Below are positions 2,062 through 53,996 of a DNA stretch of 64,000 nucleotides, piece after piece. Numbering within the stretch: position 1 is the first letter of the stretch; the number at the start of each line of letters is the position of its first letter. The stretch comes from an uncultured Hormoscilla sp. (GTDB lineage: Bacteria > Cyanobacteriota > Cyanobacteriia > Cyanobacteriales > Desertifilaceae), in NCBI GenBank assembly GCA_963921275.4, contig OZ001293.3:2432001-2496000 (forward strand), written 5' to 3'. Both the position numbers and the translations under genes were made by a program. The notes beneath the pieces were generated by a model. It saw only the letters and a list, made by a program, of their open reading frames with translations, was not told the DNA's origin and made no database searches.

Positions 2062-3333
2062 CTATACCGCAGCCGCCGACTGACTCAATGCTTCCTTCAA
2101 CAACTCAGCCTTATCCGTTTGTTCCCAAGGCAATTCCAGATCCGGGCGACCGAAGTGGCCGTAAGCAGCCAATTCCTGGTAAAAACGTCCGCCGCGTTCC
2201 CCTGGCAGGTTGCGCAAATTAAACGTCTGCATAATTCCTGCTGGGCGGAATTCAAATATCTTCTTGACCGCTTCCAACAGGCTATCTTCATCTACTTTGC
2301 CCGTACCAAAGGTCTCAATCAACATGCTCACAGGACGGGCCACCCCGATGGCATAGGACAGCTGCACCTCACATTTTTCTGCCAACCCAGCAGCCACAAT
2401 ATTCTTCGCCGCATACCGACAAGCATAAGCCGCACTGCGGTCTACCTTTGTGGGGTCTTTTCCAGAGAACGCGCCGCCACCGTGACGGGAATAGCCGCCA
2501 TAGGTATCGACAATGATTTTACGCCCCGTCAAGCCCGCATCCCCTTGGGGACCGCCAACCACAAATTTCTCCGTCGGGTTCACCAGAAATCTGGTTTGAT
2601 CGTCAGGCTTCACATCAATATCTGCGAAAGTGGGTTGCACCACAGCTGACCACAGGTCTTCTTTAATCTTTGCCTGCACGGCTGCTTCATCAGTAATGTT
2701 ACCAATGGTCGGCGCATGTTGGGTAGAAATCAGAATCGTGTCGATTCCCACAGGCCGTCCGTCTTCATAGGCCACCGTCACCTGACTTTTACCATCCGGA
2801 CGCAGGTAAGGCAATTGTCCCGTTTTACGCACCGCTGCCATGCGCCGACAAATCCCATGGGCCAAACTGATCGGTAAAGGCATCATTTCGGGAGTTTCGT
2901 TGCAGGCGAAGCCAAACATCAAACCTTGATCTCCGGCACCCACAGAGTCCAGCTTCTCTTCCGATTTTTCCGGAACGGTAGACATCTCCCGTTGTTCCTG
3001 GGCGCTGTTCACCCCTTGGGCAATATCAGGAGACTGTTCGTCTAAAGCAATCAAAACTGCACAGCTATTGGCAGAAAACCCACTATCGGCACCCAAGTAA
3101 CCAATCTCAGTTATTTTTTTCCGCGCTAGATTGATAAAGTTAATTTGAGCCTTGGAAGTAATTTCACCCGTAATCAAGACTAAACCTGTATTGACCACAA
3201 CTTCCGCGGCTACCCTACTGGTGGGGTCTTCGGTCAACAATGCATCCAGGATCGTGTCTGAGATTTGATCGCAGATTTTGTCTGGATGTCCTTCTGTAAC
3301 TGATTCGGAACTAAATAGATAACGACGTGTCAA
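2062..3333 (-). CDS. metK: S-adenosylmethionine synthetase
   Basis: [26 protein letters not shown] and AAYGHFGR motifs. Confidence 0.98.
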
Positions 3334-3411
3334 GGATATCTCCTTTCTTTGCTAAATTCTATTTTCTTGCCTACCACCCCTGCCGATCTGCGATCTCGGG
3401 GCGATCCCACT

Positions 3412-50410: not shown

Positions 50411-51086
50411 GTGTGTTAGTACTACTTTGTAATATTTCTTAAGGTGTTCTCATCGCATGTTAATTATATAATGCTGCCAGCCATACACAAGCAGCGTCAC
50501 AATTTTTCTAGTCGGAGCCCCACCATACCTCCCCGCCCACTTAACTCGTCGCTGCGCGCAGCAAAATCTCATACTTGTGAGTTAATGAGACTGACCCTCT
50601 TATCCCTTGTCTCCCTGGGAATGAGCAGTATCGAGGCTCCGCCTCCTGTGAGTTACTGACGCCGCCTCTATTATTACTCTCGTACCCTCGTATCCCTTGT
50701 CTCCCTGGGAATTGCTAATTACTCTCGTGGCAGGTGTCTCCTGTGAATGAGAAAGCTAGCGTCGGTAATTACCCTCGTGAGTTCCATTCCATCGGTCGTC
50801 TATTGAGGCCAGGAGGCAGAGCCTCAATCGGGAGTGACCAGGGAGACCCTGGCCACTAGAACAAGGTCTACGTAGAAACCTGGCATCATATGTATGAGAG
50901 AAGGCATACTGTTAATGATAGTATGATCTTAATAATGAGCAAGGACGGCGATCAATCCTCTGGCCCGATAGCTGGGAAGATTTGATCGTTTGACCGATAG
51001 AAGGAATGTGAAAATCTCGTGATTGCGCTGCGCGCAGCGACGCACTGCTCAAAAAGCTGCGAAAAACATAAACCCAGCCCGAGAAA

Positions 51087-53996
51087 ATGATGTCAAACTC
51101 CACCGCTACCGATTTTTCCGGCACGGTAAGTCCGCCCCTGTTGCTGTTAATTGACGGTCACTCGTTAGCCTTCCGTTCTTACTATGCTTTTGCCAAAAGT
51201 AAGAAAGGCGGACTGAAAACTTCAACGGGAATTCCTACTAGCGTTTGCTTTGGCTTTATGAATAGCATGCTAGAGGCGATTCATACTCAGAAACCCCAGG
51301 CGATCGCAGTAGCATTTGACCGCGCGGAACCAACATTCCGCCACGAGGCAGATGCTAACTATAAGGCAGGGCGCGCGGAAACGCCTAAAGATTTCATCCC
51401 AGACATGGCAAATCTTCAGGAACTGCTACAGGCTTTAAATCTGCCCCTGGTAACCAGTGCGGGATATGAAGCAGATGATGTATTGGCAACTATAGCGCAA
51501 GTGGGGAGTGCAGCGGGTTATCGGGTAAAGGTGCTGACAGGCGATCGGGACTTATTCGGGATAGTTGACGAAGAAAAAAACATCAGTGTATTGTATCTGA
51601 GTGGCGGTCATCTCAAGCGGGATAGCCGGGCCACGGATTTCGGAAGGTCAGAAGTGATAGAGAAACTAGGCATCTCCCCCGCACAGGTAGTAGACTATAA
51701 AGCCCTCAGCGGGGACAGTTCCGATAACATTTCCGGAGTCAGAGGGATAGGGGAAAAGACGGCGGTCAAGCTGCTGAAGGAATACGGTAGTCTCGATAAT
51801 ATATATGCTGCCTTAGAAAATATTAAAGGAGCCACGAAGAAAAAGCTAGCAGAGGGGAAAGAGGTCGCCTATCATTCCCAGTATCTGGCCCAGTTGAGGT
51901 TGGACGTACCGATAGAGATTAGTCTAGAAGACTGCCAGTTGACAGGTTTTGACATTCGCCGCTTAGAACGAGTGCTGTTAAAATTAGAATTCAAGAAGTT
52001 TTTGGACAAAATTGAGCAGCTACAAGAGAAGTTGGGCGGTTCGATAACTGATGGCGAACCGATAACAACAACTTCCGAAAGCCCGATCGCGCAGCGTGCG
52101 CGCAGCGCAATCGGCATCCAGCAGCAATTAGACATCAATCTCCACAAAGATTTAGGGCCTCGCATCATTGACACTCAGGCAAAACTAACCGCATTGGTAA
52201 AGCAATTGCAAGGTTGCCAGGATGTCCCGGTAGCCTGGGACACGGAAACTACAGACGTCAAACCGCGATCAGCGCAACTGTTAGGAATAGGTTGCTGTTG
52301 GGGAACGGGTGCCAATGATGTTGCTTATATCCCCATTCATCACGCAACGGGGAATAATTTGGATCTAGACATGGTTCGAGAGGCTTTGCGTCCCATTCTG
52401 GAAAGTGGAGATTATCCCAAAGCGTTTCAGAATGCAAAGTTCGATCGCCTAGTGCTGCGATGTCAGGGAATAGAACTGCAAGGGGTAGTGTTTGACACCA
52501 TGCTAGCAAGTTACGTGCTAGATCCAGAAAAGCCTCATAACCTCAAAGACTTGTCAGTGAGGAACAATCTGGTGCTGGAACTGAAAAGCTACTCCGAGGT
52601 AGTGCCAAAGGGTCAAACCATTGCGGAGGTGGATATCCCGACAGTAGCATATTACTGTGGCCAGCAGGTTGAGGCGACCTTCCAATTGGTGGACAAGCTG
52701 AGTGCCAAACTGAAGCAAGTACCAGCAGTGGAGAAGCTGCTGCTAGAGGTAGAACAGCCTTTAGAACCGATTCTAGCAGAAATGGAATATAGGGGGATAA
52801 GGGTTGACAGCTTCTATCTGGAGGAACTCTCGCAACAGTTGCAAAAGGATTTAGCAAAGATTTCAGAACAAGCATATCAGGAAGCCGGAGATAAATTCAA
52901 CCTGGGTTCCCCCAAGCAGGTGAGTCAGTTGCTGTTCGAGAAACTAGGTTTAGATAGCAATAAATCTCGTAAAACCAAGACGGGTTATTCTACTGGCGCC
53001 GCTACCCTGGAAAAACTGCAAGGGGATCACCCAGTTGTCGATCTCATTTTGCAATATCGCACCCTGGACAAGTTAAAATCAACTTATGTAGATGCCTTAC
53101 CGCAGCTAGTGCGTACAGATAGCCAGCGGGTGCATACAGATTTTAATCAGACGGTTACGGGGACGGGAAGGCTTTCCTCTTCTAATCCGAATTTACAGAA
53201 TATTCCCATTAGAACGGAATTTTCGCGGCAAATTAGAAAGGCGTTTTTGCCAGAACAGGACTGGTTGTTGGTATCGGCTGATTATTCCCAAATAGAGTTA
53301 CGGATCTTGGCACATCTGAGTCAGGAACCGGTGTTAGTTGAGGCTTACCAGCAGAATGAAGATATTCATTCTGTCACGGCGCGACTGCTATTTGAAAAGT
53401 CAACAGTAACGCCAGAGGAACGAGGTTTGGGTAAAGTGATTAACTTTGGCGTGATTTACGGAATGGGCGCCCAAAGATTTGCCCGATCGGCGGGGGTGAC
53501 AAGCTCCGCTGGGAAGGAATTTATTCAGCGGTTTTATCGGCGCTATCCAGGGGTGTTTGCGTATTTGGAGAGAGTCAAGAAAGAGGCGATCGCGCGGGGA
53601 TATGTGGAAACAATCTTGGGGCGTCGTCGCTACTTCGAGTTTGAAGATGGAAGCTTGCAGAAGATGAAAGGAAGGGATCCCGAAGAGATAGACTTAAACA
53701 AACGAAATCTAGGTAGGAACGATGCCGGAATTTTACGGGCCGCAGCGAATGCGCCCATACAGGGTTCGAGTGCAGATATCATCAAAATAGCGATGGTAAA
53801 ACTGCATGAAGTGTTACAGAATTACCAGGCGCGATTGCTATTGCAAGTGCATGATGAATTAGTGTTGGAAGTTCCCCCAGAGGAATGGGAAATGTTACAA
53901 TCGGAAATTGAGACGACGATGAAATCAGCTATAGAGTTAACTGTGCCATTAGTAGTTGATATCCATGTCGGGAAAAATTGGATGGACGCTAAGTAA
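51087..53996 (+). CDS. polA: DNA polymerase I
   Basis: IDGHSLAFR, GYEADD, ADYSQIELR, KVINFGVIYG and QVHDE. Confidence 0.98.
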   Translation: MMSNSTATDFSGTVSPPLLLLIDGHSLAFRSYYAFAKSKKGGLKTSTGIPTSVCFGFMNSMLEAIHTQKPQAIAVAFDRAEPTFRHEADANYKAGRAETPKDFIPDMANLQELLQALNLPLVTSAGYEADDVLATIAQVGSAAGYRVKVLTGDRDLFGIVDEEKNISVLYLSGGHLKRDSRATDFGRSEVIEKLGISPAQVVDYKALSGDSSDNISGVRGIGEKTAVKLLKEYGSLDNIYAALENIKGATKKKLAEGKEVAYHSQYLAQLRLDVPIEISLEDCQLTGFDIRRLERVLLKLEFKKFLDKIEQLQEKLGGSITDGEPITTTSESPIAQRARSAIGIQQQLDINLHKDLGPRIIDTQAKLTALVKQLQGCQDVPVAWDTETTDVKPRSAQLLGIGCCWGTGANDVAYIPIHHATGNNLDLDMVREALRPILESGDYPKAFQNAKFDRLVLRCQGIELQGVVFDTMLASYVLDPEKPHNLKDLSVRNNLVLELKSYSEVVPKGQTIAEVDIPTVAYYCGQQVEATFQLVDKLSAKLKQVPAVEKLLLEVEQPLEPILAEMEYRGIRVDSFYLEELSQQLQKDLAKISEQAYQEAGDKFNLGSPKQVSQLLFEKLGLDSNKSRKTKTGYSTGAATLEKLQGDHPVVDLILQYRTLDKLKSTYVDALPQLVRTDSQRVHTDFNQTVTGTGRLSSSNPNLQNIPIRTEFSRQIRKAFLPEQDWLLVSADYSQIELRILAHLSQEPVLVEAYQQNEDIHSVTARLLFEKSTVTPEERGLGKVINFGVIYGMGAQRFARSAGVTSSAGKEFIQRFYRRYPGVFAYLERVKKEAIARGYVETILGRRRYFEFEDGSLQKMKGRDPEEIDLNKRNLGRNDAGILRAAANAPIQGSSADIIKIAMVKLHEVLQNYQARLLLQVHDELVLEVPPEEWEMLQSEIETTMKSAIELTVPLVVDIHVGKNWMDAK

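Follow-up and report, generated by a model that had tools for sequence, protein, structure and literature searches.

The 64,000-nucleotide stretch of DNA from an uncultured Hormoscilla sp. analysed here (contig OZ001293.3; the whole stretch is called the window below) contains a 19-base repeat, copies of which lie within conserved genes as well as between genes. In all three genes that we compared with orthologues by protein alignment, those for MetK, a CBS/CCA-type nucleotidyltransferase and a DUF6825 protein, the repeat coincides with an insertion of five residues, that is, of 15 bp. The same sequence occurs at other loci of other Hormoscilla assemblies, next to the same four bases and with the same bias in its flanks. 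The family is probably a recently active, non-autonomous, target-specific 15-bp micro-insertion element of Hormoscilla-type cyanobacteria, the mechanism of which we infer.

A 19-base repeat and its 15-bp insertions

The repeat had been picked out from the letters of the window alone (the sequence-only reading), and our search, which allowed up to three mismatches, recovered all eight sites claimed there at their coordinates: six exact matches and two with one mismatch. No further match was found in the window at this threshold. Dinucleotide shuffles give an expectation of 0.03 matches, and none of 100 shuffles contained eight. In this unbiased sample the mismatch spectrum is thus six exact copies, two with a single mismatch and none with two to four, and allowing up to five mismatches in the window brought no gain over the shuffle level. 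When 40 bases of flank on each side were compared, the window copies had no similarity to one another outside the 19 bases, so the repeat is sharply bounded. It is free of stop codons in all six frames and includes an 8-bp palindrome; the word TTCCGGAA occurs seven times in the window, each time inside the element. Gene identities, assigned by Pfam searches of 54 window open reading frames (ORFs) and by frame tracing, place six of the eight copies in genes (encoding MetK, RibH, the CBS/CCA-type nucleotidyltransferase, DUF6825, a cadherin/RTX protein and PolA) and two in intergenic DNA. The peptide TVPEKS, claimed to occur in three unrelated enzymes, is read in MetK, RibH and the CBS/nucleotidyltransferase protein, and tracing the frames also yielded the opposite readings that had been claimed, DFSGT in PolA and in the ORF at 27497-28927 and PIFPER at 11428.

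The host is marked as cyanobacterial by 38 copies of GCGATCGC in the window, and the window MetK shares 95-96% identity with proteins named Hormoscilla sp., a genus described as a filamentous symbiont of Dysideidae sponges (PMC6520454). Neither the motif string nor its complement occurred in the literature searched. Text searches of Hormoscilla genome papers returned no mention of transposase, mobile or pseudogene, the word 'repeat' being used there of other things, and no occurrence of 'insertion' in the genome paper PMC7313196.

The window MetK (423 residues) reads EMS(TVPEK)SEEKL, where all 29 aligned relatives (20 with identities of 87-96% and a further nine cyanobacterial MetKs) read EMS-SEEKL, without the five bracketed residues. 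In comparison with the solved MetK 7r3b_A, the site is a gap in a variable loop ahead of GAGDQG; an AlphaFold2 model of MetK built from a 22-row alignment had a mean pLDDT of 43 and was unusable. In the CBS/CCA protein the window has VVD(TVPEK)SVGQ, and 16 of 17 aligned relatives, seven of those 16 being Hormoscilla-like, are without the insert. The sole relative that has it, P0123 (93% identity in the searched region), carries it as TVREK. The DUF6825 protein reads TNPI(FPERF)AV in the window and TNPI-AV in its closest relative, P0242 (93% identity); the five residues are absent from all 17 aligned homologues, P0242 included, and the Pfam match sets 110 protein residues onto 105 profile positions. 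The sequence-only reading had proposed a mobile unit a multiple of three in length and hence tolerated in genes, which the exact 15-bp insertions in all three genes bear out. It had also named the opposite outcome, orthologues of the same length at these positions; the relatives of MetK, CBS/CCA and DUF6825 are five residues shorter. The alignment of MetK and CCA orthologues that it suggested, to which we added DUF6825, revealed the empty sites and fixed the length of the unit and its target.

The register of the insertion was examined by cutting every possible 15-nt frame out of the window sequence, translating the remainder and comparing it with the residues of the empty sites. With the leading 15 nt of the 19-mer cut out, the prediction is S-S-E in MetK, D-S in CBS/CCA and N-P-I-A-V in DUF6825, all three of which are observed. 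Other registers call for T where S stands, or for NRFA or NPFA, and moving the frame leftward by one base would turn the invariant D of VVD into E; the empty sites show none of these residues. Since the indel is 15 bp and the conserved block 19 bases, four bases were already present. In the only register that fits, the inserted unit is the 19-mer's first 15 nt, lying directly 5' of a pre-existing TCGG and without target duplication. Of the earlier estimate of a 15-18-bp unit the length of 15 bp stands; the last four bases of the repeat are pre-existing target, and the unit is not 19 bp. Because the unit is 15 bp, every genic insertion is in frame and adds five residues.

Copies in other Hormoscilla genomes

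One scan with the 17-nt core of the repeat was made against 185,579 species-representative genomes (596 Gb); it listed 108 loci, and the totals are lower bounds. At least 58 copies in at least 56 loci come from four other Hormoscilla metagenome-assembled genome (MAG) assemblies (20, 20, 13 and 3 loci). Of these 58 copies, 57 have A at the free position before the core and 54 have G at the one after it; the 47 singleton matches in unrelated taxa among the matches listed have no such preference, A preceding the core in 16 and G following it in 14. The singletons look like chance matches, their number fitting the ~69 17-mer matches expected in 596 Gb, and as far as the matches listed go the element appears specific to Hormoscilla-type cyanobacteria. 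Matches in Methanoregula were considered as the same element and rejected, because the 17-mer lies there inside a repeat-box cluster of its own with different flanks. At these loci (L017, L046, L065, L068 and L086, from three assemblies) it stands amid repeated ATCGCGATC / ATCGATCAGCGATTTT-type boxes and is then always followed by C, not G. The boxes look like a lineage-specific repeat array, at a guess iteron- or origin-like, that shares the word by chance.

The same word at different loci in separate assemblies excludes an adapter or assembly artefact, an alternative kept in view by the sequence-only reading, which fails on the presence of the 19-mer at other loci of four independently assembled Hormoscilla MAGs. 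The broader suggestion that the copies reflect a sequencing adapter, an assembly artefact or convergent selection for the peptide TVPEKS draws on the identity of the copies only. Set against that identity, the four other assemblies stem from different projects and sequencing methods and hold the 19-mer at loci non-orthologous to those of the window, an independent protein record has the one-substitution variant TVREK, and copies occur in intergenic DNA and in three reading frames across both strands; we give this suggestion virtually no credence.

In a BLAST comparison of the 108 listed loci with the window, no locus was orthologous to a window copy; the output amounted to four partial repeat matches. 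An all-against-all BLAST of the 56 Hormoscilla loci found one orthologous pair among the loci listed (L042/L070), the flanks being otherwise unrelated. In this pair two element copies 54 bp apart lie in a tandem duplication common to two Hormoscilla assemblies (98.8% over 671 bp), where the element has been copied together with its flanks. Older copies exist as well: three copies with two mismatches lie less than 300 bp from exact ones in the fetched loci. Five of the window copies are packed into 8.5 kb (2961-11428), and we dropped this clustering as a basis for argument, its simulated p of ~0.046 being too weak. In GM7CHS1pb at least six pairs of sampled loci are 1.3-5.3 kb apart, in a sample that may favour neighbours.

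TCGG is present at 61 of the 64 copies listed (the exceptions listed are TCGA three times, TCGT once and TCGC once), and duplicated bases flank none of the 64. Among the 58 copies in other Hormoscilla assemblies, base -1 is T or C in 54 and G in none, base -2 is C or G in 49 and base -3 is C or T in 43, and A is enriched at the two positions 3' of TCGG (27/58 and 24/58). A strong base followed by a pyrimidine (S-Y) is thus favoured ahead of the insertion point. The commonest upstream trinucleotide is TCT (10 of the 64 copies listed). CGA lies upstream at six of the 64 listed sites, and at four of them GCGA does, giving a HIP1-like octamer that spans the junction.

These junctions also bear on the idea that the motif is a selected genomic signal and its spread a by-product, the signal being an uptake sequence, a mark of chromosome organisation or, on TTCCGGAA, the place where a dimeric protein binds. 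The near invariance of the copies, the 8-bp palindrome and the confinement of TTCCGGAA to the element (7/7) would suit a signal, as would the density of about one copy per 8 kb in the window, to which known uptake sequences come within an order of magnitude. The element indeed resembles the DNA uptake sequences (DUS) of Neisseria, the uptake signal sequences (USS) of Pasteurellaceae and HIP1 in being a short, near-invariant, over-represented word that lies within genes in preferred frames. However, uptake sequences and HIP-type motifs originate by substitution, at constant length, and DUS and USS spread by substitution and recombination, again at constant length. Unlike DUS, USS and HIP1, for the last of which a ratchet model is given in PMC5861425, each tested copy of the element (3/3) is a clean 15-bp insertion into a conserved protein. 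Furthermore, most copies lie in coding loops in either orientation, and a signal leaves the fixed TCGG junction and the S-Y bias unexplained; we regard it as improbable.

The insertions in metK and the DUF6825 gene are private to the genome of the window among all sequences recovered, and therefore arose after this genome had parted from relatives with 93-96% protein identity. Such private insertions, together with the near identity of the copies, show activity after the divergence of closely related lineages. Other short in-frame insertions are found in the Hormoscilla orthologues of the CBS/CCA gene (window 6840-9554), P0122-P0127, the lengths of which range from 899 to 1009. P0127 has two copies of a 16-residue TVRGRP...GRPRTV unit, P0124 and P0126 have a 10-residue SRSVAIASEA insert, and P0122 and P0126 have 15-31 additional residues past residue 105; judged from these proteins, gene micro-insertions seem to be general in the genus.

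The use of coding frames, a test for which had been proposed, proved to be non-random. Frames were assigned to 28 coding copies (the six of the window and, by a strict ORF-length rule, 22 of the 58 from other loci), and the 342 occurrences of TCGG in 39 kb of window genes supplied the expectation. TVPEK (frame S0) is commoner than expected, with 11 copies against 3.9, and RSGKI (S2) rarer, with one against 6.1. The remaining frames were DFSGT (A2; nine observed, 9.2 expected), PFRKN (S1; three and 3.4), PIFPE (A0; three and 4.0) and RFFRN (A1; one and 1.3). The distribution differs from the TCGG expectation at a simulated p = 0.005, and similarly or more strongly with longer target definitions. 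Orientation to the genes is even (15 sense, 13 antisense). The tolerated positions are loops, linkers or protein termini, which together with the excess of TVPEK points to selection acting on copies after insertion.

Mechanism and known systems

We infer that the unit is non-autonomous and depends on a sequence-specific enzyme that acts in trans and has its gene at another place in the genome. Such an enzyme would paste the leading 15 bases of the 19-mer, as a fixed unit, directly 5' to a TCGG already in place, in most cases one with S-Y ahead of it, in either orientation and without duplication of target bases; selection would then keep the copies that are tolerated, in loops, linkers and termini. 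We tentatively name as a candidate, with more doubt than confidence, a single-strand nuclease-ligase of the HUH/Y1 type, of the IS200/IS605-RAYT kind, because this is the sole bacterial kind among those compared that inserts beside a fixed tetranucleotide without target duplication. IS200/IS605 elements are described as inserting in this way (PMC6006769), and the 15-bp unit likewise abuts a fixed tetranucleotide, TCGG, without target duplication. [quoted passage not shown] As the sequence-only reading had it, no mobilising enzyme is visible in the window: Pfam searches of the 54 window ORFs gave only an IS4/IS5-type DDE transposase, which is part of a separate insertion sequence (IS).

Several findings weigh against a recently active element placed in this way. 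No HUH/Y1 gene was found by Pfam among the 54 window ORFs, and there is no TnpA in the window. IS200/IS605 elements are described as using hairpins of 20-25 nt together with guide tetranucleotides (PMC6006769); the 15-mer has no room for these, falling short of the length of a single subterminal hairpin. There is no significant fold in 31-nt stretches from three copies, folded on both strands (-2.2 to -5.4 kcal/mol); with z-scores of +0.24 to -1.34 in these six folds, the hypothesis of a hairpin was rejected. A GTAG or CGTC tag is not present in the 19-mer or its conserved flanks. Along three large GM7CHS1pb contigs the orientation of copies looks mixed, as it is relative to genes, and so gives no sign of the strong strand bias of lagging-strand-targeting elements, the replication direction of these contigs not being established. 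Empty sites are known as protein only, for three of the six genic copies, with the register taken from codon logic, and the frame statistics come from ORF-length calls on 617-bp loci that left 36 of the 58 copies without assignment. Finally, in a tree of the CBS/CCA proteins (894 ungapped columns) the window is sister to P0122, which has an empty site (support 0.98), and the filled P0123 lies elsewhere. The history of this site would thus need recombination, retained polymorphism, precise loss or repeated insertion.

For the CBS/CCA site the residue next to the insert is informative. The serine is followed by V in both filled alleles but by S, I or C in the empty ones, and this shared V argues for a shared haplotype rather than two independent hits. 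It points to an insert that may have been moved with its haplotype by recombination or kept as a polymorphism; precise loss at the site is possible.

The same 15 nt could also be a scar or a templated patch rather than a transposing unit, the main rival reading and one that we consider unlikely, if less so than a genomic signal. As a scar, it would be the footprint left by a larger TCGG-targeting element on excision; as a patch, it would be a fixed filler put into breaks by an enzyme that carries a template, for example a reverse transcriptase with a fixed RNA template. Either would accommodate a unit too short for the recognition structures of known transposon ends (sizes as given in PMC6006769 and PMC3733652). 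A further copy, at 30606, retains only the 3' part of the motif and would suit 5' truncation, as a single case. Elements that depend on reverse transcriptase are also at hand. Four near-identical repeats of ~870 bp, at 20884-~21750, 22751-~23617 and 56774-~57640 on the minus strand and ~44528-45360 on the plus strand, each end in a match to Rfam domain V/VI (44-47 bits). They look like ORF-less group II introns, too short for a maturase and presumably mobilised in trans, and would mean that reverse transcription is at work in the genome. However, the larger elements of the window are without unit-like ends: local alignment of the 19-mer to two tRNAs, two of the four group II introns and the IS matched 4-8 of 19 bases, and no source sequence for it was found in the window among these. 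The words ACCGTTCC and GGAAAAATCGG are not seen separately above chance in the window, and excision footprints normally carry duplicated target bases, none of which flank the copies.

A 15-bp element inserted beside TCGG by a trans-acting enzyme finds its closest likeness in the small dispersed repeats (SDRs) of Nostoc. Both are tiny dispersed cyanobacterial repeats with near-identical copies, no encoded enzyme and a precise short target, and in both insertion is read from presence and absence in orthologues, here at the protein level (MetK, CBS/CCA and DUF6825). According to what Elhai et al. reportedly described in 2008 (Genome Res 18:1484), SDR1-8 of Nostoc punctiforme and its relatives measure 21-27 nt, and SDR4-6 are said to share a hairpin. 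The element differs from them in its unit of 15 nt, its target of TCGG rather than HIP1 and its Hormoscilla-type host, a separation made on descriptions and not on sequences, and no shared hairpin is evident in it. For SDR5, PMC4390886 describes a precise insertion into HIP1, with the third base on one side and the fourth on the other, and SDR-like repeats are, as PMC5861425 puts it, reported from Nostocaceae only. The comparison with Nostoc repeats drawn in the sequence-only reading is therefore apt as an analogy (tiny, dispersed, with a precise target) and does not extend to length or host range. In its behaviour the element is SDR-like in kind, but shorter and with another target and another lineage.

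Repetitive extragenic palindromic (REP) sequences and the REPIN-RAYT systems share with the element a short, high-copy, non-coding unit adjoining a defined tetranucleotide. REPs are, however, hairpins of 20-65 nt that bear a GTAG or CGTC tag, lie mostly outside genes, frequently form pairs and are associated with a RAYT gene, whereas the element is a block of 15+4 nt without a significant fold or a tag, is genic in six of eight window copies and has no RAYT in the window. Some REPs are noted at times in frame within genes (PMC3733652). More similar in this last respect are the Rickettsia palindromic elements (RPEs), described as in-frame repeats within conserved functional proteins in which the added peptide is tolerated (PMC10969869, PMC2229807); like them, the element decorates conserved proteins in frame, at about a tenth of their size. 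RPEs measure 105-146 bp (~150 bp in a 2024 review) and have long stem-loops and terminal inverted repeats, which the element lacks. MITEs are given as 70-300 bp long, duplicating their target and having terminal inverted repeats that measure 15-30 bp (PMC3733652). Compared with RPEs and MITEs, the element is roughly 5-20 times shorter, has terminal inverted repeats limited to CCG/CGG and makes no duplication.

The multiplication of very short bacterial repeats has long been a puzzle; a candidate enzyme exists for REPs, and we know of none for the Nostoc SDRs. The element offers an unusually clean case, with a fixed 15-nt payload, a 4-nt target, no duplication and differences between close relatives, so the search for the enzyme becomes a tractable problem of comparative genomics. 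For copies in essential genes, what happens to the protein is seen directly, and the family serves as a natural experiment in the tolerance of proteins to loop insertions of five residues. It also has a bearing on how the genome of a sponge symbiont, apparently an obligate one, evolves. It is conceivable, but for now doubtful, that 15 bp is the smallest mobile DNA unit yet described, stamped at S-Y/TCGG into single- or double-stranded DNA by a dedicated enzyme system of a new kind that needs no hairpins, terminal repeats or target duplication and has been active so recently that close symbiont lineages differ in their copies. If so, either the chemistry of insertion would be new or a known chemistry would be working on a radically minimal substrate, and essential proteins would have a natural source of loop insertions of five residues.

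The window copies and neighbouring repeats

Three of the exact copies lie close together on the minus strand. Copy 1 (2961-2979; insert 2965-2979, target TCGG 2961-2964) is in metK (2062-3333, minus strand; S-AdoMet synthetase by Pfam), where in the sense frame TVPEK forms residues 119-123. Copy 2 (5789-5807; insert 5793-5807, target 5789-5792) is in the sense frame of ribH (5685-6284, minus strand) and gives TVPEK as residues 160-164, just beyond the DMRL-synthase domain (Pfam match 14-155). Copy 3 (6399-6417; insert 6403-6417, target 6399-6402) is intergenic, between ribH and the divergent CBS/CCA gene, with a longest stop-free frame of 56 codons. That gene, of DHH-CBS-PolyA_pol (CCA-type) architecture (6840-9554, plus strand), carries the exact copy 4 (7899-7917, plus strand; insert 7899-7913, target 7914-7917) in its sense frame, with TVPEK as residues 354-358 in a turn of the CBS domain, between VVD on one side and the strand LVGIISRRD on the other.

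The other exact copies are copy 5 (11428-11446, minus strand; insert 11432-11446, target 11428-11431), which is read antisense as PIFPER in the DUF6825 gene (11194-11565, plus strand), and copy 7 (39258-39276, plus strand; insert 39258-39272, target 39273-39276), which is intergenic, in DNA without a convincing ORF and with a longest stop-free frame of 84 codons. Both one-mismatch copies are on the minus strand and are read antisense as DFSGT. Copy 6 (28779-28797; last G>C, giving the target TCGC) lies in the cadherin/RTX gene fragment 27497-28927 (plus strand). Copy 8 (51109-51127; T6>G) lies in polA (51087-53996, plus strand; DNA pol A by Pfam), where DFSGT forms residues 9-13, ahead of the 5'-3' exonuclease domain (Pfam match from residue 19). 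The ninth copy at 30606-30624 (minus strand), degenerate or 5'-diverged, differs at five of 19 bases and keeps the 12 contiguous 3' bases CCGGAAAAATCG intact; it is a probable, not a certain, member of the family.

The window holds further repeats. A second short palindromic family, with the core CTGCGCGCAG, has copies at 49045, 50552, 51028 and 54566 and variants at 52088-52110, 43407, 47080 and 63275. CGTCG precedes three of the four full copies, a CGTC-tagged, REP-like form; Di Nocera et al. 2013 are cited for CGTC-tagged REPs in five phyla, Cyanobacteria not being among those named there (PMC3733652). The variant at 52088-52110 is carried in frame by polA, and one of the copies is close to the 3' end of an amine-oxidase (phytoene-desaturase-like) gene.

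The IS at 26456-27445, with its DDE transposase at 26465-27289 (minus strand), splits a large gene for a leucine-rich repeat (LRR)/cadherin/RTX protein into 23811-26540 and 27497-28927. Its terminal word occurs again at 15815, 22387, 29242 and 30230, suggesting solo ends or miniature derivatives. In the ORF 23811-26540 a 72-bp tandem array (24078-24810) encodes leucine-rich repeats, and single 72-bp units are found at 22168 and ~40900-41120, the latter in a paralogous LRR/cadherin/RTX gene.

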